A stretch of DNA of 64,000 bases from Desulfobacterales bacterium (GCA_963674755.2 CAXXVS010000002.1:96001-160000); one strand, 5' to 3'; shown: positions 3,674 to 28,687, numbered from the stretch's first letter. Numbers and translations: made by a program. Notes: a model not told the origin generated them from the sequence alone.

Positions 3674-3680
3674 GGAATCG

Positions 3681-8371: not shown

Positions 8372-8386
8372 AATAAGGCAAAGCCC

Positions 8387-10259: not shown

Positions 10260-10639
10260 GATCTCCCCACTTGTAGTTTCACCCCTGTGTTTGTGCTGTA
10301 AAAACCGGAATCCTTGACCCCCCGCGTTTTCCCCAGGTGCCTATAGACGATTCTGTTCCGGAGGCCAACATTTTCATGCACCGGGCGGCCGTCCTCCTTT
10401 GATCAGGTCCGCCGCGGGGGCGGGGCGTGCGCCACGGCGCTTGTCCACGGGGCGGGAACGTCCTCCTCAGGCGGCGGACGGGCAGCGCGGGGCAGCCGCC
10501 GGCCTACCCGGCACTGGGGGAACCTGCGACGTGGGAGGGGTTGTCAACGTTCTTGTCAGGCGAGACTACCCGATAGGCATCCATCGGAGAGGGTGGCCGT
10601 GAACGTACTGAAACGACATCAACTTTTTTTGGCGATCAA

Positions 10640-10655
10640 CGGCATGACTATTGCT
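10640..10655 (+). promoter_or_regulatory. candidate sigma-54 (-24/-12) promoter
   Basis: CGGCATGACTATTGCT has GG-N10-GC with GGCA and TTGC context, about 55 nt upstream of ATG 10711. Confidence 0.55.
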
Positions 10656-10710
10656 CTTCCGCAGGGGGATTGCATTTCCACAAGGGATACCGATAACAAA
10701 AAGGGGTGTC

Positions 10711-11217
10711 ATGCTGCAAAAGGGGGTCATCGGATTGATCTGCATCTTGGCGGGGGTGATCGGGTATCTGGTCTTCGGCGGGATCGGTTTGGCGGTGGGG
10801 CCCCTTACAGGTCTTGTTACCGTGGCCGATTGCTATCTGAGGAAACGGCAGCATTGCTCCCGGTCCGCCGGCCCGGCCTGCTTTCGCCTATGGCGCAGGG
10901 AACCGCATCGGGCGGCAAGACGGAACAGGGCCCGCCTGGAGGCCCTTCTGGCAAAGGCCCATCGGCTGGCGGACACCTTCCACGATGCGTACGGGGCCCG
11001 CAACTGCTGCCTGGACATTATCCGCCAGACCGACAAGGAAGATCCGTTGTTTATCGCAGCTTACGAGCTCTTTATGAGTACAGTCATCCGACGGGCGGAC
11101 AAACCGGCGCCATCGACCGACCAGCCCGTTTCAAACCGGCGCCGGCTAGGGCCCCAAACCAACCACCGGAACGATGCCCAAGTGATTCGATTTCCCCATC
11201 ACGTTTCCCGCCAATGA
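10711..11217 (+). CDS. hypothetical protein with N-terminal hydrophobic segment(s)
   Basis: ATG after AAGGGG; Gly-rich hydrophobic N-terminus followed by a helical soluble part; no family recognised. Confidence 0.55.
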   Translation: MLQKGVIGLICILAGVIGYLVFGGIGLAVGPLTGLVTVADCYLRKRQHCSRSAGPACFRLWRREPHRAARRNRARLEALLAKAHRLADTFHDAYGARNCCLDIIRQTDKEDPLFIAAYELFMSTVIRRADKPAPSTDQPVSNRRRLGPQTNHRNDAQVIRFPHHVSRQ

Positions 11218-11266: not shown

Positions 11267-12055
11267 CTAATCGTCCTTTTTTATAAAGCGGTAGATGGCC
11301 TCGTCCTCGTGGGAGAGAGGTGCGCCGCGATCATAGAGTTTGTCCAGGAAATAGTGATAAAAATCGTGGCGCAGGCTGTCCCGGTTGGCGATGACGAACC
11401 AGCGGTTGCGGGTCCAGATAACGGGGGAGATCGCCTCCTGACCGGTTTCAAAATTACCCACCAGCGCTTCGGCACGGTCCACGATGATATCGATGGATTC
11501 CCCGCCCAGTTTGTCCCGCAGTGAGCCTGCTTCAGGATGGGTGACCTGGATGTCGCAAATGGCCGGTATGGCGCCCATGCCAATCAGCCGGATACCCACC
11601 CCCCGTTCGATGGCGTGGCGGATTTCCTTTTCCAGCCGTTTCCAGGTTCCCGGAAAGAGGCGCAGATAGATTTCCTGCCGGGCCGCATCGATAATATCGC
11701 GTGCCTTGTGGATGGCTTCCCGTCGTCCGCGGATGGTCAGCAGATAATCATAGTCCGTATCAGGATCGAGCTGTGCCACCTGTTTTTCGAGCAGGCTCAG
11801 GTTGGCTTCGAACTGGCCCTGCAGGCGCTTTTTGAGTTCTTCGAAGGGGAGGGGTACGAAAAGCCCTTTTTCGATTTCGAAGACTACGCCTTTGCGGGTC
11901 AGACCCCGCAGGACGTCGTAGATCCGGGAGCGCGCGATCCCGGATAATTTGCTGAGTTGGGAGCCGTTGCAGGGGTGTTGGCGCAGCAGGGCGAGGTAGC
12001 AGGAGGACTCGTATTTCGAGAACGCGAAATCCTGCAGTAGGCTGGTAATGTCCAT
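11267..12055 (-). CDS. TrmB-family transcriptional regulator
   Basis: FSKYESSCYLALL..GSQLSKLSGIARSRIYDVLRGL TrmB HTH with a C-terminal effector domain. Confidence 0.9.
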   Translation of the reverse strand: MDITSLLQDFAFSKYESSCYLALLRQHPCNGSQLSKLSGIARSRIYDVLRGLTRKGVVFEIEKGLFVPLPFEELKKRLQGQFEANLSLLEKQVAQLDPDTDYDYLLTIRGRREAIHKARDIIDAARQEIYLRLFPGTWKRLEKEIRHAIERGVGIRLIGMGAIPAICDIQVTHPEAGSLRDKLGGESIDIIVDRAEALVGNFETGQEAISPVIWTRNRWFVIANRDSLRHDFYHYFLDKLYDRGAPLSHEDEAIYRFIKKDD

Positions 12056-12769: not shown

Positions 12770-12787
12770 TTGCCCAAGGAGGCCGCC

Positions 12788-14074
12788 ATGTTGTCCACCC
12801 TGCATGCCATAAACACACCGCCGGTTTTCGGTTTTTCCAATGTGCCCGATGATGCGATCCGCCGGCTGGAGACCCAATACGGGGCGCACCATTACGAACG
12901 CCTTGATGTGGTGGTGCGGCAGGCCCGCGGGAGCTGGATCACGGACGTCAACGGCAAGCGCTACCTGGACTGCCTGGCTGCTTACTCCGCGGCCAATCCC
13001 GGTCACCATCACCCCAAGATCGTCAATGCCCTGGTAAAGGCCCTGCTGGGGGATTATGCCGCGGTCATTTCAAACGTGGTCTATACCGATCCCCTGGGGC
13101 TGTTTCTGTCCCGTATGGCGGAATTCGTGCCGCCGCTGGGGCGGCGCTTCGGGGAAGCCGGCAACAAAGTCCTGCCCAAGAACGGCGGTGTCGAATCGGT
13201 GGAAACCGCCATCAAGATGGCCCGTTTCTACGGCTGGAAGGCCAAGGGAATTCCGGACGGCAAGCAGGAGATCATCGTTTTTAACAACAACTTCCACGGC
13301 CGCATGATCACGGTGGTGTCCTTTTCCACCACCGAGAAATACCGCCGCGGGTTCGGCCCGCTGACCCCGGGGTTCGTGTCGGTGCCCTTCGGCAACCTGG
13401 ATGCCGTGGCGGCGGCCGTCAACCAAAACACCTGCGGCATCCTGGTGGAGCCCATGCAGGGTGAAGGGGGCATGCAGGTACCGCCCCCCGGTTTCCTCAA
13501 GGGGCTGCGGGAGATTGCCGACCATCACGATCTATTGCTGCTGTGCGACGAGATTCAGGTGGGATTGGGACGCACCGGCAAACGCTTCTGCTTCGAGCAC
13601 GAAAACGTGGTCCCTGACGGTCTCGTCCTGGGCAAGGCCCTCTCCGGCGGCCTGGTGCCGCTTTCCGTGTTCGTTACCAATGCCAAGCTGATGGATATGG
13701 CTTTCAACGTGGGCTCTGACGGGTCCACCTTCGGCGGCTATCCCCTGGCCTGCGTGGCCGGCCTGGCGGGCCTGGAAGTGGTGGAAGAAGAGAAACTGGC
13801 GGAAGCTTCGGCGCGCCAGGGCGCCCGGCTCAAGGCGGCCCTTCAAGCGTTGGCTGAGCGCTCGCCCCACGTGAAAGAGGTGCGCGGCCAGGGCCTGTTC
13901 ATCGGCATCGAAGTCAAAGAACGCAACGCCATGGACTTCTGCCACAAACTGGTCGAGCTGGGCCTCATCATCAACGACAGCCACGGCCACACCATCCGCG
14001 TATCCCCGCCCCTCAACATCAGCGATGAAGATGCGGATCTGCTGGTGGACCGGCTGCGGCAGGTGCTGTGCTGA
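12788..14074 (+). CDS. rocD: class III PLP aminotransferase, ornithine aminotransferase-like
   Basis: YLDCLAAYSAANPGHHHP, NFHGR, VEPMQGEGG, DEIQVGLGRTG, LGKALSGG, GSTFGG; AAGGAGG RBS before ATG 12788. Substrate not certain. Confidence 0.75.
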   Translation: MLSTLHAINTPPVFGFSNVPDDAIRRLETQYGAHHYERLDVVVRQARGSWITDVNGKRYLDCLAAYSAANPGHHHPKIVNALVKALLGDYAAVISNVVYTDPLGLFLSRMAEFVPPLGRRFGEAGNKVLPKNGGVESVETAIKMARFYGWKAKGIPDGKQEIIVFNNNFHGRMITVVSFSTTEKYRRGFGPLTPGFVSVPFGNLDAVAAAVNQNTCGILVEPMQGEGGMQVPPPGFLKGLREIADHHDLLLLCDEIQVGLGRTGKRFCFEHENVVPDGLVLGKALSGGLVPLSVFVTNAKLMDMAFNVGSDGSTFGGYPLACVAGLAGLEVVEEEKLAEASARQGARLKAALQALAERSPHVKEVRGQGLFIGIEVKERNAMDFCHKLVELGLIINDSHGHTIRVSPPLNISDEDADLLVDRLRQVLC

Positions 14075-14149
14075 TGCCGGCGCATCTTTCCCCCAACCAA
14101 TAAGGACCGAACGGTCATATTATAAATGCTCCCGCGCCATCGGGAGCAT

Positions 14150-15883
14150 TTATCTTTTGATGATCCGCGGCAGGATCATCTGGTGCTGGGGGCAGATGGA
14201 TTTCGGGTTCTGGTAAGCGGCACCGGCGAAGGCCGTCAGGTAGCGGCGCAGATCCTTGAGGGCCACGATCTCATCCACCAGGCCGGTGCGGGCGCAGAAC
14301 AGGGGCCGCGATTTGTCGTGGTAATCCCGGGCCAGGGCGTTCATCTTTTCCACCACCGGCTCCAGGGGGCGTCCGGCTTCCTTTTCCTTCACCAAGCGGC
14401 GGGCGTAGGTGGCCACGGCTGCGGTTTCCCCGTGCATGACATAGATTTCCGTGGCCACGGTTCCCAGGGTGAAGGCGTTGTGGCGATTGGCCGTGGGACC
14501 GCCCAGGACATAGTGGGCCGCGGCCGTGCCCTTGCGCAGGACCACGAGCATCATGGGGATGTCGGTCTGCTGGATGGAGTAGATCAGGGACTGGCCCAAC
14601 CCTAATAGCTCGGCTTTTTCGGCGGCATCGCCCACATCGATCCCGGTGGTGTCCTGAAACCAGACGATGGGGATACGGTCCCGGCCACAGAGGGTGACAA
14701 ATTCGTTCATCTTGATGAGGCCCTGGCGGTAGAGCTTGCCGCCGAAGCCGGGAGTGTCGGCGTATTCCGGATAGTCTTTGCCGAGATAACCCTGGCGGTT
14801 GCCGATGCAGGCCACCAGGAAGCCGTCCAGCTTGCACAGCCCGGTGTACATTTCAGGGCCGTAGTCCGGCCGGAACTCCATGTGCTCGCCCCCGTCCACC
14901 AGGCGGGCCAGGATCTGCTCGAATTCGTAGACCCGCTTGGGCTCCAGGGGGAGCAAGCTGTAGAGATCTTCCTGGGGGAAGCCGGGCTCCCGGGGCGGGG
15001 CTACCCGGAAGAATTTGGGATGATAGGAGGGAATCGCCTTCATGTAGTCCTTGAGCCCATCGAGGACGCCCTGCTCCTCCTCGAAGACATAGCGGAAGAA
15101 GCCTGTCTCGTCGTAGTGGGTGGCCACCGTGCCGGGGGGCTGGGCCTTGAAGTGCTTGGCCTTTTCGATAAGGCCTTCGGCCATCTCCAGGTCGAAATGG
15201 CCCCTGGGGGCCATGCCGCTCACGATGCCGGCTCCGCCCACGGCGATATTGCAGTCCTTGTGGGCGAAGAGAATGGTGGGGCTGATGCTCTGGTAGCCGC
15301 CCCCGGCCGGATTGGTGCCGTAGATGCCCGCCAGCACGGGAATGCCCATCTGCTCCAGTTCGGCATGACGGAAAAAGGGCGTGCCGGCGCCCCGGCGGTT
15401 GGCGTAGAATTTCTCTTGCTCGGTGAGTTTGGCGCCGCTGCAGTTGACCAGCCAGACCAGGGGGATGTTCAGTCGTTTGGCCAGATCGGTGACCCGCAGG
15501 ATGTTTTCGGACTGGCCCGGCAGCCAGGCCCCGGCCATGACCTTGTTGTCGAAGCCGATGATGACTGCCCATTTGCCGGCGATGCAGCCCAGACCGTCGA
15601 TGACGTTGGTGGTGCCTTCCGTGTTGTCCAGGGGGTTGTAGAGGATGTGCAGCGGGCACCAGGACCCCGGATCCACCAGGTAGTCCAGGCGCTGCCAGAC
15701 GGTCATCTGCCCGCGGGCATTAATTTTTTCGGTGGGGAAACCGGCCGCTTTGACCGTTTCCACCTGGGCCTGAATTTCGGCCTCGGCCGCCTCCAGCGCG
15801 GCGCGGTTTTTAGCCGTCTGCTTGAGCTGGCCCGGTTTCAGGGCCTTGCCGATTTCCGTCATCTTTTCAAAATACGGTCGCAT
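14150..15883 (-). CDS. gcdA: glutaconyl-CoA decarboxylase alpha (carboxyltransferase) subunit
   Basis: Two carboxyltransferase domains with GcdA-type motifs (GTNPAGGGY, QDTTGIDVG, RKGTAAAHYVLGGP, YQNPKSICPQHQMILPR); operon context. Confidence 0.9.
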   Translation of the reverse strand: MRPYFEKMTEIGKALKPGQLKQTAKNRAALEAAEAEIQAQVETVKAAGFPTEKINARGQMTVWQRLDYLVDPGSWCPLHILYNPLDNTEGTTNVIDGLGCIAGKWAVIIGFDNKVMAGAWLPGQSENILRVTDLAKRLNIPLVWLVNCSGAKLTEQEKFYANRRGAGTPFFRHAELEQMGIPVLAGIYGTNPAGGGYQSISPTILFAHKDCNIAVGGAGIVSGMAPRGHFDLEMAEGLIEKAKHFKAQPPGTVATHYDETGFFRYVFEEEQGVLDGLKDYMKAIPSYHPKFFRVAPPREPGFPQEDLYSLLPLEPKRVYEFEQILARLVDGGEHMEFRPDYGPEMYTGLCKLDGFLVACIGNRQGYLGKDYPEYADTPGFGGKLYRQGLIKMNEFVTLCGRDRIPIVWFQDTTGIDVGDAAEKAELLGLGQSLIYSIQQTDIPMMLVVLRKGTAAAHYVLGGPTANRHNAFTLGTVATEIYVMHGETAAVATYARRLVKEKEAGRPLEPVVEKMNALARDYHDKSRPLFCARTGLVDEIVALKDLRRYLTAFAGAAYQNPKSICPQHQMILPRIIKR

Positions 15884-15956
15884 GAACTCCCCCCCTCTTG
15901 AATCCCCTAACAGGCAATCGGATGAAATACTGCTGGCATTGACAGGTGTGCGATGA

Positions 15957-16175
15957 TCAGGTGTCGATGAGGGCCAGAACGTCGTCCTCCTCCACCTCGT
16001 CGCCCTGCTTGACCCGGACTTCCGTAATCGTCCCGCTGACGGGCGCGAATACCGGGGTTTCCATCTTCATGGCCTCGATGACCAGAACCTCTTCGTCTTC
16101 CTCTACGCTTTGGCCAGCCGCCATATTGAGCTGGATGATCTTGCCCGCCAGGGGGGCCAGGATTTCTTCTGCCAT
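15957..16175 (-). CDS. gcdC: biotin carboxyl carrier subunit of the decarboxylase (72 aa)
   Basis: EAMKMET biotinylation motif; GGAGG RBS before ATG 16175. Confidence 0.9.
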   Translation of the reverse strand: MAEEILAPLAGKIIQLNMAAGQSVEEDEEVLVIEAMKMETPVFAPVSGTITEVRVKQGDEVEEDDVLALIDT

Positions 16176-16266
16176 TGTGCTACCTCCCGAAAATTGCTTG
16201 TGCCTATTGAATGTCAGTCGTTCGGAGAACACCAACCCAATTAAGGGCGAACGGCTTTGCCATTGT

Positions 16267-17385
16267 CTATCCAAGCAGCGTCAAAAATATCCCCGCCGCG
16301 ATCACCGTGCCGATAACGCCGGCCACGTTGGGGCCCATGGCAAACATGAGCAGGTAGTTTTTCTTATCATACTGGGAGCCGACTTTGTGCACCACCCGGG
16401 CGGACATGGGCACGGCCGATACGCCGGCCGCCCCCAGCAAGGGATTGATCTTCTCCCGGCGCGCCAGGTTCATCAGTTTGGCCAGCAGGATACCCGTGGC
16501 CGTGCTGACGATGAAGGCGAACAGCCCGAAGAAGAAGATAAAGAGCGAGCGGGGCTGCAAAAAGGTTTCCGCGTTCATGGTGGCCCCCACCGGCAGCCCC
16601 AGGAAAATCGTGACGATATTGAGCAGTTCGCTCTGGGCCGCCTGGGTCAGGCGCTCCACCACCTTGGCCTCCCGGAAGAGGTTGCCCAGCATGAACATGG
16701 CGATCAAGGGCGCGGCGGCTGGAACCAGCAGGATGATGACCAGGGTGGCCACGATAGGAAAGATGATTTTCTCCAGCTGACTCACCTTGCGGCCCTTTTT
16801 CATCCGGATGGTACGCTCTTTCGAAGTGGTCAGCAACCGCATGACCGGCGGCTGGATGATGGGCACCAGGGCCATGTAGGAATAGGCCGCCACGGCACAG
16901 CTGCCCAGCATGTGGGGCGCCAGTTTGGACGCCAGGAAGATGGTGGTGGGCCCGTCGGCGCCCCCGATAATCCCCATGGTGGCGGCTTCCCTGAGGTCGA
17001 ACCCCATGGCGCTGGCCGCAAAAAAGGTCAGGTAGACTCCGGCCTGGGCCCCGGCGCCCAAAAAGATTAAGACCGGTTTGGACAGCAGGGGGCCGAAGTC
17101 GGTCAGGGCCCCGAGACCCAAAAAGATCAGGGGCGGTATGATTTCCCATTGGATGCCGTAGTGGTAGAAGCGCCACAGGAGCCCCTCGCCAGGTTCCATC
17201 AGGCCGGCCAGGGGTAGATTCGCCAGGAGAATGCCGAAACCGATGGGCAACAGCAGGAGCGGTTCATATTGTTTGGCGATGGCCAGATAGATGAGGACGC
17301 TCGCGATCAGCCACATCAAAAGCATGCCCGGTGTGAGGTGGAACAAGCCTGCCGTTTGAAAGACGGCCAGCATGTCATTTCCCAT
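16267..17385 (-). CDS. gcdB: Na+-translocating decarboxylase beta subunit
   Basis: YEPLLLLPIGFG, GIIGGADGPT, GAAGVSAVPM and AMGPNVAGVIG OadB-family motifs. Confidence 0.95.
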   Translation of the reverse strand: MGNDMLAVFQTAGLFHLTPGMLLMWLIASVLIYLAIAKQYEPLLLLPIGFGILLANLPLAGLMEPGEGLLWRFYHYGIQWEIIPPLIFLGLGALTDFGPLLSKPVLIFLGAGAQAGVYLTFFAASAMGFDLREAATMGIIGGADGPTTIFLASKLAPHMLGSCAVAAYSYMALVPIIQPPVMRLLTTSKERTIRMKKGRKVSQLEKIIFPIVATLVIILLVPAAAPLIAMFMLGNLFREAKVVERLTQAAQSELLNIVTIFLGLPVGATMNAETFLQPRSLFIFFFGLFAFIVSTATGILLAKLMNLARREKINPLLGAAGVSAVPMSARVVHKVGSQYDKKNYLLMFAMGPNVAGVIGTVIAAGIFLTLLG

Positions 17386-17509
17386 GGGATTCGCCTTTCG
17401 CGAGAGCCTCAGCCGCCAGGCGGGTCAGGCGGATGGCGACATAGAGCAGGGTCATGCCGATGAAGACCCCTCCCAAACCGGAGGCGAAGATTTGCAGCGC
17501 CGTTTTCAT
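17375..17509 (-). CDS. gcdD: OadG-family single-TM small subunit (44 aa)
   Basis: MKTALQIFASGLGGVFIGMTLLYVAIRL, a G..VF..L TM helix, overlapping the gcdB start and the upstream stop. Confidence 0.8.
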   Translation of the reverse strand: MKTALQIFASGLGGVFIGMTLLYVAIRLTRLAAEALAKGESHGK

Positions 17510-17925
17510 TTTTTCTCTCCACCCACCGCCGTCTGTGAGTCCAGCGGCCAGGCCCTCTTTTCCTCCAGTACGGCGCGCAGCACCTTCAACGCCTGGTTGG
17601 TCGCCGGAACACCGCCGTAAATCGCCGTCTGGAAGATCGTTTCGGCAATGTCCCCCACGGCGCAGCCCACATTCAAAGCGGCCTGGATGTGGAGCTTCAG
17701 TTCCTCGGATTTCCCCAGCACTGTCAGGGCCGCCACCGTTACGAGCTGGCGGGTGGGGTGGGGCAGCTTCTCCCGGGCGTACATCTTGCCCGTGATAAAC
17801 AGGGACAGGTCTTTGGCCAAACCGGGGTCGAAGGCCTTCCACAACTCGAAGGGTTTTTCGTCCTCGACGCCCTCGAAATAAAGGGCTGCCGTGCGTTTGG
17901 TCTTCTCGACAAGGTCATCGCTCAT
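17506..17925 (-). CDS. carboxymuconolactone decarboxylase (CMD) family protein
   Basis: REKLPHPTRQLVTVAAL, ELKLHIQAALNVG, QTAIYGGVPA; no CxxC. Confidence 0.85.
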   Translation of the reverse strand: MSDDLVEKTKRTAALYFEGVEDEKPFELWKAFDPGLAKDLSLFITGKMYAREKLPHPTRQLVTVAALTVLGKSEELKLHIQAALNVGCAVGDIAETIFQTAIYGGVPATNQALKVLRAVLEEKRAWPLDSQTAVGGEKK

Positions 17926-18036
17926 GAGTCGATATCCTTTGCAGTGCTGTTTCTATAAAAGGGTGTATGAACCTGATGGTATTCCCATTGAAGTAAAGTC
18001 CTTGTTAAGACTTGTCACTGATGTGCTGAATGTATC

Positions 18037-18230
18037 GTTACTTTTCTTTCGCGTGAAAGAAAAGTAACCAAAAGAAAACGCCCGTGTCCCGCTTCAACCT
18101 GCGCGTCGTCGACACGGCCGGAGCGCGCGGAAACTCGCCCGCCTTCGCCAAGGCTACGGCGGACTCAAACAGTCCGCGCGCTTTTATCCGGCCGCGTCGC
18201 CGATGCTCGGCGCGGGACAAAGGGGAATTT
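18037..18230 (+). repeat. dispersed repeat family 2, most complete copy
   Basis: Perfect 14-bp hairpin GTTACTTTTCTTTC-GCGT-GAAAGAAAAGTAAC, then CAAAAGAAAACGCCCG and a long nested stem TGTCCCGC...GCGGGACA ending AAGGGGAATTT. Confidence 0.8.
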
Positions 18231-18328
18231 CCCCACCATATGCATGAACCTCATGGACCATCAGTTTCAACAGAGGATTGCCGTATTCGTTCAAGGTCAA
18301 CGCCGAGATTGGGCGAATGCTGCAACAC

Positions 18329-19492
18329 TCAGCGGTTGGCTTTGCGGTAGCCCAGCTGATCCAACGCAATAATCCACTTGCAGATGTTGGCCGAGCCTTC
18401 CACCATGGTATAGGTGGGGGCGTCCCGGTAGTAACGCGCCACCGGGTATTCGGTGGAATAGCCGTAGGCCCCCAGGATGCGCATGGCGTAGTTGGCGCAC
18501 TTGACGGCCGTCTCCCCGGCCAGGTACTTGGCCATGGCCACATCCAGGCCGTTGTTGAGCCGGCCCTGGTCCTTGGCCCAGGCCGCCTTGTAGACCAGCA
18601 ACCGGGAGGCTTCGATTTCGGTGGCCATCTGGGCGATCATGTCCTGGTTCATTTGGTACTCGCCGATGGGCTTGCCGAATTGTTTACGTTCGTTGCAATA
18701 TTTCAAAACCGTTTCCAGACAGGCCTGGGCCAGGCCCACGGCACCGGCGGCGGCCGACAGGCGGGTCTGGTTGAGGGAGCCGAAGACGATCTTGGCCCCG
18801 TCGCCCGGCTGGCCGATGATGTTTTCCTTGGGGACACGGGTGTCCGTTAGAAATACCTCCCCGGTGGGCGAGGAGTGGGATCCCATTTTTTCCAGGGTGG
18901 TCGTTTTGATGCCGTTGAAGTTTTTCAGCTCGACCACGAAGGCCGAAAGCCCCTTGGCACCCATGGACTTATCCGTATAGGCGTAATAAATGACCACATC
19001 GCCCACGGGGGCGTTGGAGATCCAGGTTTTGGAGCCGTTAAGCAGCCAGTGGTCGCCCTTGTCCTCGGCCGTGGAGCTCATGGCCATGACATCCGAGCCG
19101 GCATCCGGTTCGGTGATGCCGAAGCCGCCCACATATTCGGCCCGCACAAGTTTGGGGACATATTTGGCGGCCAGGTCCGCGCTGCCGTAGTGGTAAATCG
19201 TGTAGGCGCATCCCAGGGTCTGCATGTTGATCTGGACCCGCAGGGAGCTTGACGCCCGGGCGATTTCTTCGGTAACGATCATGGCCGAGAGCCAGCCCAT
19301 GTCCTCGCCGTCGTATTTTTCGGGGATCACGGTGCCGAACAGGCCCAGTTCGGCCATGGGCCGCATGGCCTCCTCGTAGGGGAAATGGTGGTCGGCGTCC
19401 CACTCGTCCGCATGGGGGGCAATCTGTTTGTTGGCAAATTCCCGGACGGCTTTCCTCAGCATCTCGAGCTCTTTGGGCAGTGCAAAATCCAC
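18329..19492 (-). CDS. acd: glutaryl-CoA dehydrogenase, non-decarboxylating (glutaconyl-CoA forming)
   Basis: Acyl-CoA dehydrogenase motifs (GITEPDAGSD, RKQFGKPIG, GAYGYSTEY); MVEGS with Val before the catalytic Glu; C-terminus ALDQLGYRKANR resembles the Desulfococcus enzyme as I recall it; adjacent to gcd genes. Confidence 0.9.
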   Translation of the reverse strand: MDFALPKELEMLRKAVREFANKQIAPHADEWDADHHFPYEEAMRPMAELGLFGTVIPEKYDGEDMGWLSAMIVTEEIARASSSLRVQINMQTLGCAYTIYHYGSADLAAKYVPKLVRAEYVGGFGITEPDAGSDVMAMSSTAEDKGDHWLLNGSKTWISNAPVGDVVIYYAYTDKSMGAKGLSAFVVELKNFNGIKTTTLEKMGSHSSPTGEVFLTDTRVPKENIIGQPGDGAKIVFGSLNQTRLSAAAGAVGLAQACLETVLKYCNERKQFGKPIGEYQMNQDMIAQMATEIEASRLLVYKAAWAKDQGRLNNGLDVAMAKYLAGETAVKCANYAMRILGAYGYSTEYPVARYYRDAPTYTMVEGSANICKWIIALDQLGYRKANR

Positions 19493-19526
19493 GGTTGGCT
19501 TCCTTTTCTTCCTTATAGTAAAACAT

Positions 19527-20828
19527 TTACGAACGGTTGATTATCTTCTCGACGACCGCCATGGCCAGTTCGTGGACTTTGCCTTTGAAGCGCAGGTCGA
19601 GGGCGGTCTGCAGCATGGCCGGGTTGGCGACGGTATTGCGGGCGGCTATCAGGGCCAGGGCGGCCAGGGCCCAGTCCGGTTCCCGGATGCCGGCGGCCTT
19701 GAAATCGATGGTTTCAATTTGGGCCCGGCACATTGGCAGGTCGATGCCGGCGGCGCAGATGACAAGGGTTTCTTCCTCAAGCCCGGCCAACATTTCCTTC
19801 CGGCGGGCCACGCCCTCTGGCGCCAGGGCAAGGACGACGGCCGGGCGGTCGATGCCGGTGAAGCCGATGTCGTTTTTGGAGAGAATCACTTCGCTGACGG
19901 AATGACCCCGCAGCACGGTGATGGGGTAGTCGTTTTTCTGGGAGGCCTGCAGCCCGGCCGAGGCTGCGGCCAGGCACAGCAGTTCCCCTGCCGTGACGAT
20001 GCGCTGCCCGGCGCTGCCCAGCAGCACTACCTCCTGGCGGGCTTCCGCCACCGGGGTATGACGGACCGGGATGGCCTGGGGCGCTGCGGCCGGCGGGAGC
20101 GCGGCGGCTTCCCGCCGATAGTGCCGTCCGTACTCCTCCCGGGCGTTTTCTTTCCGAAAACGGACCACCGACGGGAGGGAGGCCAGAGATCCCGCAATGG
20201 ATTGGGGGGAGAGTTTGTTGCGCTTGGTGTAGCGTCCCGGGCAGACGCCCCAGATGTCGAGCAGGGCAAAGCCCTCGAATCGGATGGCCGCCTCCATAAG
20301 CGCTGCCAGATCGGGGTCGTAGGCCGACACCCGCTCCAGATGGGGGGCGCCGGCTGCCCCGGCCACCTGGCAGACGTCCATGGGTTTTTCCAGGCGGTTT
20401 AAGAAGCCCGATCCCACTGCCGCTTCCGGAGGGGTGGTGGAGGAACACTGGCCACCGGTCATGCCGTAGTTGAAATTGTTGAGGACCAGCAGGGTCAGGT
20501 CGATGTTCCGGCGGCAGGTGCTTAGCAGGTGGGCCCCGCCGATGCCCAACCCGCCGTCGCCCATGGTGACCACCACGTGCAGGTCCGGGCGGGCCATCTT
20601 GATGCCGGTGGCATAGGTCAGGGCGCGGCCGTGGAGGCCGTGCAGGGCATGGGTGTGGAAGAAGGTATCGAAGAGGCCGGAACAGCCGATGTCCGATACG
20701 ATGGCGATCTCTTCGCCCTTGAGGCCCATGCCCTGGAAGGCCTTGTCCAGGGCCCCGACGACGCGTTCGTGGGCACACCCCGGACAGAAGACCGGCGGGC
20801 GCTCCTGATTGAGCAGGCTCGGCGTCAT
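19527..20828 (-). CDS. 2-oxoacid:ferredoxin oxidoreductase beta subunit (TPP-binding) fused to a gamma domain
   Basis: FCPGC, SDIGC, LHGRA, GDG..NN.NYGMTGGQ, then C-terminal LGSAGQRIVTAG..GHSVSEVILS gamma-type domain. Confidence 0.9.
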   Translation of the reverse strand: MTPSLLNQERPPVFCPGCAHERVVGALDKAFQGMGLKGEEIAIVSDIGCSGLFDTFFHTHALHGLHGRALTYATGIKMARPDLHVVVTMGDGGLGIGGAHLLSTCRRNIDLTLLVLNNFNYGMTGGQCSSTTPPEAAVGSGFLNRLEKPMDVCQVAGAAGAPHLERVSAYDPDLAALMEAAIRFEGFALLDIWGVCPGRYTKRNKLSPQSIAGSLASLPSVVRFRKENAREEYGRHYRREAAALPPAAAPQAIPVRHTPVAEARQEVVLLGSAGQRIVTAGELLCLAAASAGLQASQKNDYPITVLRGHSVSEVILSKNDIGFTGIDRPAVVLALAPEGVARRKEMLAGLEEETLVICAAGIDLPMCRAQIETIDFKAAGIREPDWALAALALIAARNTVANPAMLQTALDLRFKGKVHELAMAVVEKIINRS

Positions 20829-21943
20829 GGTTCGAGCACCTCCTGTATCTGGCGCGGCTTGATCAGCTCGCCGTTCATCTGACCCAGAAAGCGGACATCG
20901 CGTCCCGGCAGCGCGCGCTGGATCTCGCGCACATATTGACCCAGATTCATTTCCACGACCAGGATGCGGTCATAGCCGGCGGTCTTTTCCCTCAGAAGCG
21001 TTTCGGGGACCGGCCAGAGGGTCTTCAGGACGAGAAGGTCGACGGGCCGTCCGTCCGCCCGAAGCGCCTGAACAGCGGTTTGCGCGGCCCGGGCGGTGAC
21101 GCCGTAAGCGATGACCAGGGTTTGCGCTTCCGGCACGGTATCCGCTTCGAAATAGGTGAAGCGATGCGCCTCGGCGGTGATCTTGCGCTGCAGGCGGTCC
21201 TGGCTGCGTGCGATCAGGTCCGGGTCGGCGGTGATGTAGCCGTCCGGTCCGTGGGTGGACGACGTCTGGCGCACGGGTCGATCGGCGCCGATGGGCAGAA
21301 AATCAGGGACCAGGCGGTCTCCGGCAGTTCCGAAGGGCAGAAAAGGGGCCTGCGCATCAGCTGACCGGCGGTGGACGATCTCCGGCAGGGCAATCGCCTC
21401 AAGATCCACGGTTTCCCGGGTCATGGCGATTTCCTTGTTGGTGGCCAGAAACACCGGACAGCGGTAGCTCTCGGACAGGTTGAAGGCCTGCAGGGTGAGC
21501 ACAATGCAGTCCCGGATGTCAACCGGCGCCAGCACGATGACCGGCAGCCCGCCGCTGTTGCCCCACTGCAGGAACTGGATGTCCCCGTCGGCCCCCTTGG
21601 TGGCGGAGCCGGTGGACGGTCCCAGGCGCTGGACATCGACGATGACGAGCGGGATCTCGCTGCCCACCGCAAAGGAAATCTGCTCGCTATAGAGGCTGAT
21701 GCCGGGCCCGGAAGTGGCCGTCATGGCCTTCCAGCCGGCCATGGATGCCCCCAGGCAAAACCCGATGGAGGCGATTTCATCCTCTCCCTGCAAACAGACA
21801 CCGCCCTCCGGGGGCAGGTAGCGTAGCATGGCGTTGTAGATCGTCGTGGCCGGCGTAATGGGGTAACCGGCGAAGAAACGGCACCCGGCCGCCCGGGCGC
21901 CCCAGGCGATCGCTTCGTTACCTTCCATCAGTGTGAGCGCCAT
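20825..21943 (-). CDS. 2-oxoacid:ferredoxin oxidoreductase alpha subunit
   Basis: GNEAIAWGA, AGYPITP, EDEIAS, TATSGPG, QRLGPSTG, VVEMNLGQ. Confidence 0.92.
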   Translation of the reverse strand: MALTLMEGNEAIAWGARAAGCRFFAGYPITPATTIYNAMLRYLPPEGGVCLQGEDEIASIGFCLGASMAGWKAMTATSGPGISLYSEQISFAVGSEIPLVIVDVQRLGPSTGSATKGADGDIQFLQWGNSGGLPVIVLAPVDIRDCIVLTLQAFNLSESYRCPVFLATNKEIAMTRETVDLEAIALPEIVHRRSADAQAPFLPFGTAGDRLVPDFLPIGADRPVRQTSSTHGPDGYITADPDLIARSQDRLQRKITAEAHRFTYFEADTVPEAQTLVIAYGVTARAAQTAVQALRADGRPVDLLVLKTLWPVPETLLREKTAGYDRILVVEMNLGQYVREIQRALPGRDVRFLGQMNGELIKPRQIQEVLEP

Positions 21944-21966
21944 GGCGCGTTTCTCCCTATTGCCGG

Positions 21967-22674
21967 TTAGAGGCCGGCCGCCTGTTTGGCCGCGCTGATT
22001 TGCCGCAGCCCCTTCAGGACATGTTCCCGGACCCGCCGGATATGACCGGAGAGCACGCGGCGGGCGGTTTTGATATCGCGCGCCGCGATGCTGTCGAAGA
22101 GGGCCTGGTGGTCGGCGTCGGCCGAGTCCATGGCGTTGGAAAAGAGCAGGTTGCCGCTGTATTTAAGGTATAGGAGATCGAAGAGGTCCCGCAGGATCCG
22201 GCAGTGCACCTGACGACCCGAGAGTTCGGCCAGGGTAAGATGAAACTCCCGGTCCTGCTTGAGGCGTTCGGCTAGATAGACTTCCCGGGAGGCTTTGAGG
22301 TGGGCCTCCAGGGCCGTGCGCAGGGTTCCAAGGCCCCGGGCGTCGATGGTGCGCACCGTATCCGGCAGCAGACGCATCTCCAGGGTTTCGCGCACATCGT
22401 AGATTTCTTCCACTTCCCGGAGATCGACCGGAGCGGTGAAATAGCCCCGGTTGGGCTCGTGCCGCACCAATTGTTGGAACTCCAGCCACTTGAGGGCCTG
22501 GATGACAGGTGTCTGGCTCATCCCCAGCCGTTCGGCCAGATCGCGGTAGGCGATTTTGTGTCCGGGCGTTAGCTCGTTGTGGAGCATCATGCTGCGGATG
22601 CCGAGATAGGCCTTGCGGGTGTGGCCCATGGCGCCGTTGGCGGCTTCGGAAGTTTTAGGAGGGCGCTGTGCCAT
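21967..22674 (-). CDS. GntR-family regulator with FCD domain
   Basis: LAERLGMSQTPVIQALKWL HTH; start uncertain (22674 or 22629). Confidence 0.88.
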   Translation of the reverse strand: MAQRPPKTSEAANGAMGHTRKAYLGIRSMMLHNELTPGHKIAYRDLAERLGMSQTPVIQALKWLEFQQLVRHEPNRGYFTAPVDLREVEEIYDVRETLEMRLLPDTVRTIDARGLGTLRTALEAHLKASREVYLAERLKQDREFHLTLAELSGRQVHCRILRDLFDLLYLKYSGNLLFSNAMDSADADHQALFDSIAARDIKTARRVLSGHIRRVREHVLKGLRQISAAKQAAGL

Positions 22675-22697
22675 GTCATGTGATCCGTTATTCAATC

Positions 22698-22717
22698 AAA
22701 AATTTGATCAAATTTTT
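22698..22717. promoter_or_regulatory. perfect 20-bp palindrome, candidate GntR operator
   Basis: AAAAATTTGATCAAATTTTT immediately upstream of the GntR gene. Confidence 0.65.
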
Positions 22718-22829: not shown

Positions 22830-24272
22830 TCAGGGATGCGGGGCGGTCCACTCGGTATGGAAGAAGGTTCCGCGGGGGCGGTCGACGCGTTCGTAGGTGT
22901 GGGCGCCGAAGAAATCCCGCTGGGCCTGCAGCAGGTTGGCCGGCAGGCGGGCGCAACGCAGGCCGTCGTAGTAAGTCAGGGCGCCGGCCAGGGCCGGTAT
23001 GGGGAGACCGTGCCGGAGAGCGGCGGCCGCGATCCGGCGCCAGCCCGTCTGGGCCTGGCGGAGCTTCTCCCGGAAGAAGGGGGCCAGAACGAGATGGGAA
23101 AGATCGGGAGCGGTCTGAAAGGCTTCGGCGATGGGATCCAGAAAACCCGAGCGGATGATGCAGCCGCTGCGCCAGACCTTGGCGATGTCACTGTAGTTCA
23201 AGGCCCAGTCATAGGTGGCGGAGCCCTCCCGCAGAAGCGTGAAGCCCTGGGCGTAGGAAATGATCTTGGCCGCCAGCAGGGCCTGTTCCAGGTCGGTCAC
23301 AAAGGTCTTGGCGTCCGGCACCGGCGGGCAATCGGCAGGTGGGGCTAAAATTTCGGCCGCAGCCACCCGTTCATCTTTGAGGGCCGAAAGGTAGCGGGCG
23401 AAGACCGATTCGCCGATGAGGGTCAGGGGTACTCCCAGGTCGAGGGCGGCCACCGCGGTCCAGCGGCCCGTGCCTTTTTGGCCGGCGGTGTCCAGAATGC
23501 GCTCCAGCAGAAGCTCGCCGTCCGGTTCCCGGTAGGCCAGGATGGCGGCCGTGATTTCGATCAGGTAGCTTTGCAGGTCCCCCCGGTTCCAGGTTTCGAA
23601 GATGGTGGACATGGCATCACCGGGAAGGCGCAGCAGATTCCGCATGAGGTGATAGGCCTCGGCGATGAGCTGCATGTCGCCGTATTCGATGCCGTTGTGG
23701 ATCATCTTGACAAAATGTCCGGCGCCTCCCGGCCCCATCCAGCGGCAGCAGGGCGCGCCGTCCGGCGCCCGGGCGGCGATGGCTTCGAACAAGGGGCGCA
23801 GGGTCTCCCAGGCGGCCGGCGATCCGCCCGGCATGATGGCGGGTCCCTTGAGGGCGCCTTCTTCCCCTCCGGACACGCCGGCGCCCACATAGAGCAGCCC
23901 CTGCCGCTCCACCTCGGCCATGCGCCGTTCGGTGTCGCCATAGTTGGAATTGCCGCCGTCCACGATGATATCGCCCCTGGACATCAGGGGGATCAGGGCT
24001 TCGATGGTGTCTTGGACGGGGGTGCCGGCCTTGACCATCAGCATGACCCGGCGGGGCGGTTTGAGGTTCTGGACCAGTTCTTCAAGGGACGCGGCGGCAA
24101 TGAAGCGTTTGCCGGCCGCGCGGCCGTCCATGAAGGCGCGGGTCTTCGCGGCGGTGCGGTTATAGACGGCCACCGTAAATCCCCGGCTTTCCATGTTCAG
24201 GGCCAGATTTTCGCCCATCACGGCCAGGCCGATGAGGCCGATGTCGGCTTGGGGTGGGTTGCGGTCGCTCAT
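22830..24272 (-). CDS. gnd: 6-phosphogluconate dehydrogenase, decarboxylating (NADP+)
   Basis: GLAVMGENL, GVSGGEEGA, KMIHNGIEY, QKGTG, QAQRDFFGAH. Confidence 0.97.
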   Translation of the reverse strand: MSDRNPPQADIGLIGLAVMGENLALNMESRGFTVAVYNRTAAKTRAFMDGRAAGKRFIAAASLEELVQNLKPPRRVMLMVKAGTPVQDTIEALIPLMSRGDIIVDGGNSNYGDTERRMAEVERQGLLYVGAGVSGGEEGALKGPAIMPGGSPAAWETLRPLFEAIAARAPDGAPCCRWMGPGGAGHFVKMIHNGIEYGDMQLIAEAYHLMRNLLRLPGDAMSTIFETWNRGDLQSYLIEITAAILAYREPDGELLLERILDTAGQKGTGRWTAVAALDLGVPLTLIGESVFARYLSALKDERVAAAEILAPPADCPPVPDAKTFVTDLEQALLAAKIISYAQGFTLLREGSATYDWALNYSDIAKVWRSGCIIRSGFLDPIAEAFQTAPDLSHLVLAPFFREKLRQAQTGWRRIAAAALRHGLPIPALAGALTYYDGLRCARLPANLLQAQRDFFGAHTYERVDRPRGTFFHTEWTAPHP

Positions 24273-24388
24273 TAGACAATTATTCCTTTGAAATAGGTGT
24301 TACGATGGCAATTTTAAATGCCAACCCATTGAGATTTTGTTCCGGTCGTGAAATTTCGTTCGAAATCTTCCACCTTTGGTGGAGGCCC

Positions 24389-24420
24389 CGACGATGCTCG
24401 GCACATGACAAAGGGAAATT
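24389..24420 (+). repeat. 3' remnant of repeat family 2
   Basis: CGACGATGCTCGGCACATGACAAAGGGAAATT matches the end of the 18037-18230 copy. Confidence 0.55.
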
Positions 24421-24483
24421 CAATTCCAAAACCTTGGAAACCGTCTATAGTCGGAGCGCTATGAAACTACCTGAAGCCACCGG

Positions 24484-24996
24484 CTATGCAGGAGGGGGCT
24501 CACTGGTAACTATGCCGGTCAAAGCCGCCACGATCCGGGTCACGATCGTCTCCGGATCGGCGTCGATATCCACACTCAGGCCGCCATCGGGTTTTTCCAG
24601 GGTATCGAGCTGGCTGCGCAGCAGCTCCGGCGGCATGAAGTGGCCCCGGCGGTCGGCCAGACGACGCTGCAAGAGGTCGAAGGTCCCCCGCAGATAGACG
24701 GTCCTGACAGTCTGCTGATCCACCCCGAGCAAGTCCCGGTAGGATTGCTTGAGGGCGGAACAGGCCAGAACGGCGGATTTCCCGGCCTGCATAAGGCGTT
24801 CCATTTCCCGGCGCAAAGCCAGCAGCCAGGGGCGGCGGTCGTCGTCGTTCAGGGGCTGTCCGCTGTGCATCTTGGCCACGTTGGCCGCCGGGTGGTAGTC
24901 GTCGCCGTCTATAAAGGCCCATCCCAGGTGCCGGGCCAGGCGGCGTCCGATGGTGGTCTTGCCGCAGCCCGTGGGGCCCATGAGAATAAGAATCAT
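24484..24996 (-). CDS. gntK: gluconokinase
   Basis: MGPTGCGKTT, DGDDYHP.ANVAKM, LACSALK, HFMP..LLRSQLDTLE. Confidence 0.95.
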   Translation of the reverse strand: MILILMGPTGCGKTTIGRRLARHLGWAFIDGDDYHPAANVAKMHSGQPLNDDDRRPWLLALRREMERLMQAGKSAVLACSALKQSYRDLLGVDQQTVRTVYLRGTFDLLQRRLADRRGHFMPPELLRSQLDTLEKPDGGLSVDIDADPETIVTRIVAALTGIVTSEPPPA

Positions 24997-24997
24997 G

Positions 24998-26413
24998 TCA
25001 GTCCGCGTCAATTCCGAAGTAGTTCACGGCATTGTGGTAGCAAATGTCTTGTACCATCCCGCCTATAAAGTCGAAGTCGTGAGGCAATTCGCCCTGTTCA
25101 ATATCGGTTCCCAGAAGATTGCACAACACACGACGGAAGTATTCGTGGCGTGGATAGGAGAGAAAGCTGCGGGAGTCGGTGAGCATGCCCACGAAACGGC
25201 TGAGCAGCCCCATGTTCGAAAGGGCGTTGAGCTGGCGCTGCATGCCGTCCTTCTGGTCGTTGAACCACCAGCCCGATCCGAACTGAATCTTGCCGGGTAC
25301 CGTGCCGTCCTGGAAGTTGCCGATCATGGTGGCCACGAGATCGTTGTCCCTGGGGTTGAGGACATAGAGGATGGTGCGGGCCAGGCGGTCTTCGCTTGCC
25401 AAACGGTCGAGGAAACATGCCAGGGGGGCGGCCAGCAGTTCGTCACCCATGGAATCGTATCCGGTATCGGGGCCTAATTCCCGGAAGGCGCGGGAATTGG
25501 TGTTGCGCAAGGCGCCGAAATGAAACTGCTGGGTCCAGTTCCGTTCGGCATCCATGCGGGCCAGCTCCAGCAGCAGGGCGCTTTTAAACTGCTCTGTCTC
25601 CAGCGCCGTCGGGAGTTCGTTGCGGCGCACCTTGGCGAAGATGCGCACGATGTCGTCCGGAGTGAAATGGGTGGCATAGGGACGCTCCAGGCCGTGGTCG
25701 GACAGGCGGCAGCCGGTCCGGTGGAAAAACGCGTGGCGGGCCTTCAAAGCGGCCAGCAGGGCATCGTAGTCGGCAATGGGAATGCCGGAGACGGCGGCGA
25801 GCCGGTCGAGATACGGGTTGTAGACCGCCGGATCTTCCACGGCCATGGCCTTGTCCGGCCGGAAGGCCGGCAAGACCTTGACCGTGAAATCCGGGTCGGC
25901 CGCCAGAGCCCGGTGGTGTTCGAGGTCGTCCGTGGGGTCGTCCGTGGTGCAGACCACCTTGACCTTCATGCGGGTCAGGATGGCCCGCGTGCTGAAATCC
26001 GGGCTCTGCAGGAGGGCGCCGGCACGGTCATAGATCTCCCGGGCACTATCCGGATCGAGGAGACGGTCCGTGATGCCGAAATAGCGTTTTAGTTCCAGGT
26101 GGGTCCAGTGGTAGAGCGGGTTGCGCAGGGTTTTGGGCACGGTGGCGGCCCAGGCCGCAAATTTCTCCCAGTCCTCCGCCGCTCCCGTAACAAAGCGCTC
26201 CGGAATGCCGTTGGCCCGCATGGCCCGCCACTTGTAGTGGTCGCCGTAGAGCCAGATTTGGGTCAGGTTGGGGAAGATGCGGTCGGCGGCGATGTCTTCC
26301 ACCGGCAAGTGGCAGTGGTAGTCGAAGATGGGCATGGCTTCGGCATAATCGTGGTAGAGGCGGCGTGCGGCCGCCGTCTGCAGGAGAAAATCTTCGGAGA
26401 GAAAGGGCGTCAC
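24998..26413 (-). CDS. uxaC: uronate (glucuronate/galacturonate) isomerase
   Basis: DYHCHL, DHYKWRAMR, CTTDDP, GSGWWFND, GMLTDSRSFLSYPRHEYFRR. Confidence 0.97.
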   Translation of the reverse strand: MTPFLSEDFLLQTAAARRLYHDYAEAMPIFDYHCHLPVEDIAADRIFPNLTQIWLYGDHYKWRAMRANGIPERFVTGAAEDWEKFAAWAATVPKTLRNPLYHWTHLELKRYFGITDRLLDPDSAREIYDRAGALLQSPDFSTRAILTRMKVKVVCTTDDPTDDLEHHRALAADPDFTVKVLPAFRPDKAMAVEDPAVYNPYLDRLAAVSGIPIADYDALLAALKARHAFFHRTGCRLSDHGLERPYATHFTPDDIVRIFAKVRRNELPTALETEQFKSALLLELARMDAERNWTQQFHFGALRNTNSRAFRELGPDTGYDSMGDELLAAPLACFLDRLASEDRLARTILYVLNPRDNDLVATMIGNFQDGTVPGKIQFGSGWWFNDQKDGMQRQLNALSNMGLLSRFVGMLTDSRSFLSYPRHEYFRRVLCNLLGTDIEQGELPHDFDFIGGMVQDICYHNAVNYFGIDAD

Positions 26414-26422
26414 AGGATCCTC

Positions 26423-27673: not shown

Positions 27674-27694
27674 GACGGGCATTCCTTGTTACCT

Positions 27695-27838
27695 AGTGTT
27701 CATCCCGAGATGGTAGATTTTGGTTCCTGGTAAGGCCGCAGCCGACGGGCGCCCGCAGGCGTAGCCCGCTACGCCGAGGACCGACAGGAGGCGAGAACGC
27801 CGCCAGGGACCAAAAGATGCCATCTCGGGGTGGACACT
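27695..27838 (-). repeat. palindromic element family 1, copy C (reverse orientation)
   Basis: TIR AGTGTTCATCCCGAGATGG...CCATCTCGGGGTGGACACT; central CGTAGCCCGCTACG; reverse complement closely matches copy A. Confidence 0.85.
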
Positions 27839-27840
27839 CC

Positions 27841-28671: not shown

Positions 28672-28687
28672 GAGGACCTCAATGGTT

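Follow-up and report, generated by a model that had tools for sequence, protein, structure and literature searches.

A probable 2-oxoadipate:ferredoxin oxidoreductase encoded with glutaryl-CoA genes in Desulfobacterales

In a 64,000-nucleotide stretch of DNA from a Desulfobacterales bacterium (GCA_963674755.2, CAXXVS010000002.1:96001-160000; we call the whole of it the window), the genes for a 2-oxoacid:ferredoxin oxidoreductase (OFOR) head a module that acts on glutaryl-coenzyme A (glutaryl-CoA). Which 2-oxoacid does this enzyme take? We argue that it is probably 2-oxoadipate, making the enzyme a 2-oxoadipate:ferredoxin oxidoreductase, and that the 2-oxoadipate would probably be supplied from lysine. 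A preliminary description of the locus had put forward the same assignment; linkage to acd and gcdA, linkage in relatives to lysine genes and the absence of a basic residue from the pocket now favor it, and the substrate itself is something that we infer from these.

All nine genes of the cluster lie on the minus strand in the order gntR, OFOR alpha, OFOR beta-gamma fusion, acd, cmd, gcdD, gcdB, gcdC and gcdA (Table 1), just as the preliminary description had it, and the distances between them—23 bp from gntR to alpha, -4 from alpha to beta-gamma, 34 from beta-gamma to acd, 403 from acd to cmd, -4 from cmd to gcdD, -11 from gcdD to gcdB, 91 from gcdB to gcdC and 73 from gcdC to gcdA—make co-transcription plausible. 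The identities proposed earlier for Acd, GcdA, GcdB and GcdC hold up: Acd scores 774.5 bits against a cut-off of 470 for NF045552 (closest structure 3MPI, E 5e-208), the carboxyltransferase GcdA matches PDB entries 1PIX (E 6e-224) and 3GF3 (E 3e-222), the membrane subunit GcdB reaches 491.5 against 190.6 for TIGR01109, and the biotin carrier GcdC completes the three at the locus. At the place expected for gcdD there is a short hydrophobic open reading frame (ORF) with a weak match to Pfam OAD_gamma (19.7 against a cut-off of 27, E 0.0014). Acd and GcdA are clear homologues of the glutaryl-CoA dehydrogenase (3MPI) and glutaconyl-CoA decarboxylase module of strict anaerobes, which is known from benzoate degradation; here no Oah was found, and an OFOR heads the module. 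A similar acd-gcdA pair has been described in G. bemidjiensis (a passage in PMC2996986).

By likeness to the Acidaminococcus enzyme, GcdABCD would export Na+, and the Na+ gradient claimed earlier may hold for this locus, which has gcdB, gcdC and a gcdD-like gene. It does not extend to the OFOR loci at large: gcdB and gcdC lie beside gcdA in just 3 of the 19 loci that combine the OFOR with gcdA (one duplicate genome included), so that Na+ coupling here is lineage-specific, and we reject Na+ pumping as a general feature of OFOR loci. As a conserved member of the acd-gcdA module, cmd is present in 11 of those 19 loci (the duplicate again included); its product here, of the CMD/PcaC fold, lacks CxxC. 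Elsewhere in the same genome (97% complete; handle G000) is a second Acd above cut-off, 72% identical to the first, which lies amid acyl-CoA dehydrogenase and electron-transfer flavoprotein (ETF) genes and has no adjoining gcdA (L084:10332-11606; G000:C3:1976442).

What carries the argument is gene order across the Desulfobacterales. We drew 151 genomes evenly from the order, our own included, and found the OFOR clade in 76, Acd in 100, Pcd, the piperideine-6-carboxylate (P6C) dehydrogenase, in 49, the aminotransferase that lies next to the cluster in 16, canonical KorB in 127 and Oah in 56. In 23 of the 76 carriers, spread over 14 of 43 families, no more than 12 kb separates Acd from the OFOR, where position alone would give about 0.4 such genomes; in 17 genomes from 11 families, acd stands directly 3' of the OFOR on the same strand. 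Canonical KorB, our control, is near Acd in none of the 94 genomes that have both. The linkage exceeds chance, and the preliminary description, which had suggested looking for conserved synteny with acd/gcd, is borne out on that point. Co-occurrence runs the same way: Acd is present in 68/76 carriers vs 32/75 non-carriers, Acd or Oah in 74 of the 76 carriers and, among the 95 genomes negative for Oah, Acd in 27/29 carriers vs 24/66 non-carriers and Pcd in 16/29 vs 10/66. The genomes are kin, which overstates Fisher P values for such co-occurrence; the weight falls on the KorB comparison and on the number of families that share the linkage.

Nor is only one kind of dehydrogenase involved, for three types of glutaryl-CoA dehydrogenase adjoin the OFOR: Acd itself; a sister group at 46-47% identity, just below cut-off, which adjoins gcdA in L011, L018 and L034; and, in L094, a decarboxylating glutaryl-CoA dehydrogenase (GCDH) convergently transcribed beside the OFOR (PDB 2EBA, E 2e-140). 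The sister group is about as distant as the G. bemidjiensis enzyme described in a passage of PMC2996986. The phylum-wide profile was weak: of 200 other genomes, 9 carry the clade, 4 of these with GcdA and 2 with Pcd; three that have neither encode, elsewhere, an Acd scoring just over its cut-off, and a decarboxylating GCDH is present in the distant G032. More distant clade relatives are found in Planctomycetota, Chloroflexota and Bathyarchaeota records.

By each sequence feature that we tested, alpha and beta-gamma belong to the OFOR superfamily. The alpha chain has the YPITP motif and the carboxylate-binding Arg106 in 102 of 102 clade sequences (roles for both are given in a passage of PMC5020499), and the beta chain has a thiamine pyrophosphate (TPP) motif (G90-D91-G92, N117-N118) and four cysteines (C15, C18, C49 and C196), all invariant in 33 sequences; by motif, the cysteines would be the ligands of the proximal [4Fe-4S] cluster. 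Domain III is recognized by Pfam POR (40.8 against 27.4) over residues 274-401 of the beta-gamma chain. A structure model of that chain built on the 33-sequence alignment (pLDDT 88), used in place of a single-sequence model with a pLDDT of 36 that we set aside, matches the beta chains 8YS5_C and 6N2N_B and, in its gamma part, separately the gamma chains 3ON3, 8YS5_B and 3G2E. CoA- and ferredoxin-dependent oxidative decarboxylation is the likely reaction.

Which OFOR, then? Curated NCBIfam models all come in under their cut-offs: for 2-oxoglutarate:ferredoxin oxidoreductase (KOR), PRK08659 at 386.6 of 411, PRK09627 at 292.8 of 579 and PRK09628 at 165.9 of 364; VorB at 244.9 of 399; IOR at 70.4 of 650.9; PorA at 66.9 of 550; PadG at 47.1 of 700; and OOR at 37.5 of 500. 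By these cut-offs the protein is not a KOR, POR, VOR, IOR, Pad or OOR member. It is ~38-42% identical to the two near-identical KorAB-type copies of its own genome, and clade proteins carry the public labels "thiamine pyrophosphate-dependent enzyme" or "PorB2." Cultured species have such proteins, with public entries under the names Desulfococcus multivorans (AOY58269.1), Desulfamplus magnetovallimortis (SLM29429.1) and Desulforhopalus sp. IMCC35007 (TKB05700.1). It is not the housekeeping KOR, because 74 of the 76 carriers (our genome, with its two copies, among them) also have KorB; we reject that identity on this ground, on the absence of KorB from the vicinity of Acd and on residue 52 of the beta chain.

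That residue is Leu. In PDB alignments it falls on Lys49 of the S. tokodaii enzyme (StOFOR) and Arg63 of the M. marinus 2-oxoglutarate enzyme (MmOGOR), and all 115 of the clade sequences have Leu there, as do 50 of 52 distant ones; both local KorB proteins have Arg. Arg63 reportedly has a role in 2-oxoglutarate use by MmOGOR. In StOFOR1, K49I cost the enzyme its 2-oxoglutarate activity and left it pyruvate activity (a passage in PMC5020499). Leu52 argues against 2-oxoglutarate as the substrate, short of proof. Three other residues are invariant in the clade—alpha-Arg225 (111/111), beta-Asp54 (115/115) and beta-Arg199 (112/112)—and by their conservation are candidates for a remodeled pocket.

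If the enzyme makes glutaryl-CoA from 2-oxoadipate, what would make the 2-oxoadipate? Its relatives point to lysine. Within 11.5 kb of the OFOR, 116 clade loci (at least 49% identity) hold Pcd in 11, a DAO-family gene in 9, the aminotransferase in 7, an AspC-like gene in 6, cyclodeaminase-like and GabT-like genes in 4 each, an AmaA-like gene in 2 and any glutaryl-CoA dehydrogenase in 15. A lysine-type or glutaryl-CoA marker appears in 32 of the 116 and in 17 of the 53 flanked by 4 kb or more on each side, counts for which the thresholds were set by us and the markers drawn from the same loci (a circularity that tells against our reading) and in which some loci are one genome twice (L032 and L192, probably L030 and L180); the order sample is the cleaner count. 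The neighboring Pcd copies pass NF050084, and the AmaA-like copies fall under their cut-off (463-490 of 600). In the distant group (37-48% identity, 52 loci), Pcd is found in 3 and GCDH in 1.

Individual loci read almost like a pathway: Pcd-alpha-betagamma-aminotransferase-acd-gcdA in L013, Pcd-amino-acid-dehydrogenase-alpha-betagamma-cyclodeaminase in L030, alpha-betagamma-AmaA-like-Pcd in L179 and, in L027 and L181, Pcd, the aminotransferase, trmB, gntR, alpha, betagamma, acd and gcdA all together. On a tree of concatenated alpha and beta sequences (147 rows, with 24 short rows omitted and deep supports low), the lysine-type arrangements turn up on several branches. Genome-wide, Pcd is present in 36/76 carriers vs 13/75 non-carriers; it is no farther than 12 kb from the OFOR in just 5 of the 76, and the aminotransferase in 3. 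Between Pcd and glutaryl-CoA dehydrogenase, the sole 2-oxoacid is 2-oxoadipate. It is an intermediate of the P. putida and mammalian lysine routes (a passage in 10.1101/450254). L030 (1923-3065) and L116 also have, between Pcd and OFOR alpha, a gene of the Glu/Leu/Phe/Val-dehydrogenase family below all cut-offs, a candidate 2-aminoadipate dehydrogenase.

In the organism at hand, the route might run as follows. The convergent aminotransferase would turn lysine into 2-aminoadipate semialdehyde/P6C, the unlinked Pcd would oxidize P6C to 2-aminoadipate, and some aminotransferase would give 2-oxoadipate. The OFOR, with TPP, one [4Fe-4S] cluster and an external ferredoxin (the cluster has no ferredoxin partner or ferredoxin-like delta gene), would then catalyze 2-oxoadipate + CoA + 2 Fd(ox) -> glutaryl-CoA + CO2 + 2 Fd(red); Acd would make glutaconyl-CoA and pass electrons to an ETF encoded elsewhere; GcdABCD would release CO2 to leave crotonyl-CoA, exporting Na+; and beta-oxidation would yield acetyl-CoA.

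The earlier suggestion of lysine as carbon source is favored by the Pcd and lysine-type neighbors of other genomes, but the local genes for it lie outside 14150..22717: Pcd (783 bits, cut-off 730) stands alone at C2:1761141, and the aminotransferase is convergent with gcdA. Tryptophan, also suggested, finds no support, with no tryptophan-pathway gene among the recurrent OFOR neighbors (a genome-wide search for them was not made). We give a little better than even odds, from gene context, that the aminotransferase is a lysine 6-aminotransferase feeding the route. It just passes the ornithine aminotransferase (OAT) model TIGR01885 (382.3 against 378.4) and fails PRK04073 (420.9 against 656), and its orthologues fall on both sides of the TIGR01885 cut-off (391, 386, 368 and 355). 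Its active-site motifs look OAT-like. A canonical OAT (547.6 bits), 46% identical to it, sits in an ArgF/ArcC cluster elsewhere. No lysine 6-aminotransferase model is among the 25 of 69 profile matches listed. The orthologues are near Pcd in 3 of 16 genomes. Close AmaA, cyclodeaminase and AspC-like orthologues were not found in this genome. A KamA-like gene beside an ATP-grasp gene is below cut-off (498 against 525), and classical lysine fermentation is not indicated by it (kamDE, kdd and kce were not searched for).

A number of observations weigh against all of this, and we set them out together. In 51 of the 76 carriers (many assemblies are fragmented), the 12 kb to either side of the OFOR hold no Acd, Pcd or aminotransferase, and of the 53 clade loci with 4 kb or more of flank on each side, 36 show no marker. 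No Pcd was found in 40 of the 76, so that entry from lysine does not hold for the clade as a whole. The association of the clade with Oah is as strong as that with Acd (47 of 56 Oah genomes carry it), 27 carriers have Oah without Pcd, and the L195 module stands beside HGD-D/BcrAD genes, 7 kb from oah; the tracking of Oah may reflect versatile oxidizers that retain the glutaryl-CoA module for benzoate. Clade OFORs have other settings too: cysteate genes in L015 and, in L095 (G038:C11:365000-384999), two 2-hydroxyacid dehydrogenases, UxaA- and IlvD-like dehydratases, a nickel-pincer isomerase, a CaiB-type CoA-transferase and a Kce-family cleavage enzyme, which may point to another substrate source. 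In the pocket, Leu52 does not name 2-oxoadipate, since K49I kept pyruvate activity; KorAB of H. thermophilus lacks the basic residue and is still specific for 2-oxoglutarate (a passage in PMC5020499); and a residue that binds the distal carboxylate was not located, alpha-Arg225 and beta-Arg199 being conserved candidates. Finally, glutaryl-CoA could possibly arise in other ways: the genome has a glutaconate-CoA-transferase-like (GctAB-like) pair at C2:679948-681698 and, beside a second 2-oxoacid dehydrogenase cluster, a SucA-SucB-Lpd 2-oxoglutarate dehydrogenase cluster (C1:268-273 kb; L197:6221-11720). In L182 a pair at 63% and 71% identity to these GctAB-like genes lies between the OFOR genes and acd; the A chain of that pair matches 1POI. 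The preliminary description had made something of a missing glutarate CoA-transferase or ligase; the cluster indeed has none, but transferase absence from the operon is the weaker as evidence because the genome probably supplies a glutarate CoA-transferase from another locus.

Might the enzyme be an extra 2-oxoglutarate or broad-range OFOR after all, one serving ornithine/glutamate or general amino-acid catabolism, with acd and gcd fed by glutarate through an unlinked CoA-transferase and the linkage a regulatory convenience? Its closest characterized relatives are 2-oxoglutarate or broad-range enzymes, archaeal two-subunit OFORs have a broad range, the linked aminotransferase barely passes the OAT cut-off, the GctAB-like pair is there and most OFOR loci are orphans. 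Set against these are the KorB that carriers keep and that never lies near Acd, Leu in place of Lys or Arg, and the separate canonical OAT in its arginine cluster, and we consider this explanation unlikely.

A little less likely again is a part in anaerobic aromatic catabolism, in which the OFOR would take an aromatic 2-oxoacid (phenylglyoxylate or phenylpyruvate) or furnish reduced ferredoxin for benzoyl-CoA reduction, acd and gcdA being its neighbors as genes of the lower benzoyl-CoA pathway. The clade is in 47/56 Oah-positive vs 29/95 Oah-negative genomes, beta has the hydrophobic pair Leu52-Phe53, and L195 lies where it does; yet our genome, at 97% complete, has no Oah that we could find (benzoate as the local source of glutaryl-CoA by the known route is rejected because of this), Oah is lacking in 11 of the 23 genomes with OFOR-acd linkage, the recurrent neighbors are Pcd, AmaA-like, cyclodeaminase-like and aminotransferase genes, and the PadG and IOR models give 47 and 70 bits where 700 and 651 are required. 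Least likely of all is that the substrate is the keto acid of lysine, 6-amino-2-oxohexanoate, leading by 5-aminovaleryl-CoA, 5-aminovalerate, glutarate semialdehyde and glutarate to glutaryl-CoA: the lost basic residue and invariant Asp54 would suit a distal amine, L011, L018 and L034 have a DAO-family gene upstream and GabT-like (TIGR00700, above cut-off) and aldehyde:ferredoxin oxidoreductase genes after acd-gcdA, and L182 has its GctAB-like genes, but the commonest upstream partner is Pcd (11/116), whose product 2-aminoadipate leads to 2-oxoadipate, 17 genomes have acd directly after the OFOR without a transferase, and 6-amino-2-oxohexanoate cyclizes to piperideine-2-carboxylate (P2C).

Taken as a 2-oxoadipate enzyme, the OFOR would be a conserved and well-supported, though putative, new substrate variant of a known family. 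With H. pylori OorDABC (8YS5), M. marinus OGOR (6N2N) and S. tokodaii StOFOR1/2 (5B46-5B48), which are 2-oxoglutarate or broad-range enzymes, it shares the fold, YPITP, the carboxylate Arg, the TPP motif and the four-Cys proximal cluster. It has no built-in ferredoxin domain, as in StOFOR (a passage in PMC5020499). Gamma is fused behind beta here, in front of alpha in StOFOR and separate as OorC in H. pylori; Leu52 stands here for Lys49 or Arg63; and the gene context here is one of glutaryl-CoA and lysine genes. The chemistry is within reach of an OFOR: relative to pyruvate, two Aeropyrum pernix enzymes, Ape2126/2128 and Ape1473/1472, oxidize 2-oxoadipate at rates of 37% and 52% (PMC13768988, Table 1). 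Both are archaeal enzymes of broad range in which this is a side activity, and the Table 1 passage gives no dedicated role. The class list in that part of PMC13768988 reads PFOR, OGOR, VOR, IOR and OOR. In full-text literature (subscription journals not covered) we found no dedicated 2-oxoadipate OFOR, and the D. multivorans genome paper (PMC5109826), in its main text and one supplement, has no mention of glutar-, oxoacid, lysine, gcd or 2-oxo.

The mammalian lysine route goes through a lipoate/NAD complex (the 2-oxoadipate dehydrogenase DHTKD1) and a decarboxylating GCDH. Its intermediates, 2-aminoadipate, 2-oxoadipate, glutaryl-CoA and crotonyl-CoA, are the ones proposed here; unlike it, our bacterium would use a ferredoxin enzyme, an Acd that does not decarboxylate and a Gcd that depends on biotin. 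Thompson et al. (2019) state, in a passage of 10.1101/450254, that a 2-oxoadipate to glutaryl-CoA route was not observed in bacteria. The same source has P. putida turn 2-oxoadipate into D-2-hydroxyglutarate by an Fe(II) enzyme, in a D-lysine (AMA) pathway (AmaA, AmaB, PP_4108, HglS/YdcJ and YdiJ) whose upstream half matches the neighbors in our relatives (Pcd/AmaB above cut-off, AmaA-like below); the exit here, unlike that one, would be a CoA thioester and reduced ferredoxin. We lean, by a modest margin over even chances, toward the view that the clade is a new subfamily of OFORs, carried by half of an order of sulfate reducers, and the first to be dedicated to 2-oxoadipate, completing an oxygen-free, mammal-like bacterial route from lysine to glutaryl-CoA.

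If so, the route from lysine through 2-aminoadipate and 2-oxoadipate to glutaryl-CoA would yield reduced ferredoxin and, here, a Na+ gradient. The OFOR family would gain a substrate class and anaerobes a lysine route besides the 2,3-aminomutase and Stickland-type ones; oxidation of lysine, pipecolate or 2-aminoadipate by sulfate reducers of sediments would have an explanation; and a generically labeled protein of 76 of 151 sampled genomes would be re-annotated. Run backwards, the enzyme would be a CO2-fixing carboxylase that extends a C5 chain to C6, and such a reversible glutaryl-CoA carboxylase would be of interest for building C6 dicarboxylate pathways.

Table 1. Features of the OFOR locus (positions counted from the first nucleotide of the window)
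Feature	Position	Strand	Evidence
GntR/FCD-family regulator, probable local regulator	21967..22695	-	Pfam GntR + FCD
OFOR alpha (domains I-II), 372 aa	20825..21943	-	Pfam POR_N + PFOR_II; PDB 1YD7/8YS5/6N2N
OFOR beta fused to gamma (domain III), 433 aa	19527..20828	-	Pfam TPP_enzyme_C + POR
Acd, non-decarboxylating glutaryl-CoA dehydrogenase	18329..19492	-	NF045552; PDB 3MPI
Dispersed ~190-bp repeat in acd-cmd spacer (bounds approximate)	18022..18215	.	blastn, 87 genome hits
CMD/PcaC-fold protein between acd and gcdA	17506..17925	-	Pfam CMD; PDB 2AF7
GcdD-like single-helix membrane subunit, 44 aa	17375..17509	-	ORF; weak Pfam OAD_gamma, below cut-off
GcdB, Na+-translocating decarboxylase beta subunit	16267..17385	-	TIGR01109; Pfam OAD_beta
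GcdC, biotin carrier, 72 aa	15957..16175	-	Pfam Biotin_lipoyl E 2e-18
GcdA, glutaconyl-CoA carboxyltransferase	14150..15883	-	PDB 1PIX, 3GF3
13-pair hairpin between convergent aminotransferase and gcdA, candidate shared terminator	14122..14153	+	Pattern scan, consensus match
Ornithine-aminotransferase-like class III enzyme	12770..14074	+	TIGR01885; gene context
TrmB-family regulator, travels with aminotransferase	11267..12055	-	Pfam TrmB

The regulators recur at some loci: gntR orthologues (at least 50% identity) are upstream of the OFOR in 9 of the 116 clade loci, and trmB orthologues are near it in 7. The gap between acd and cmd is the site of the ~190-bp repeat, which has an internal inverted repeat, has about 60-70 other genomic copies over its core by blastn and looks like a miniature mobile or REP-like element. 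A plasmid search gave no match. Near trmB and the aminotransferase are a short, apparently broken sodium:solute symporter fragment (9897-10381; Pfam SSF E 4e-6, 120 aa) and a gene (10651-11217) for a protein of 188 aa that has a hydrophobic stretch at its N terminus and no Pfam match; in L001 and L189 a similar ORF adjoins trmB.

Farther out, 833-9685 holds a YdiJ-like FAD/Fe-S 2-hydroxyacid dehydrogenase (below cut-off), a GntR, a TAXI-TRAP transporter and a nickel-pincer isomerase (group 22, above cut-off), possibly a unit for the uptake, racemization and oxidation of a 2-hydroxyacid that could in principle supply a 2-oxoacid. Directly upstream of the cluster on the same strand is a gluconate/hexuronate cluster (22830-30244: gnd, a gluconokinase-like gene, uxaC, a nickel-pincer protein and an SDR); sugar-acid use is unusual in sulfate reducers. 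Elsewhere in the genome, L083 (G000:C2:904001-922000) has two DoeA-like hydrolases, an EutB-like dehydratase, a PanB-like protein, a class I aminotransferase and a TRAP transporter, all but PanB below cut-off, and reads as an ectoine-like catabolic unit.

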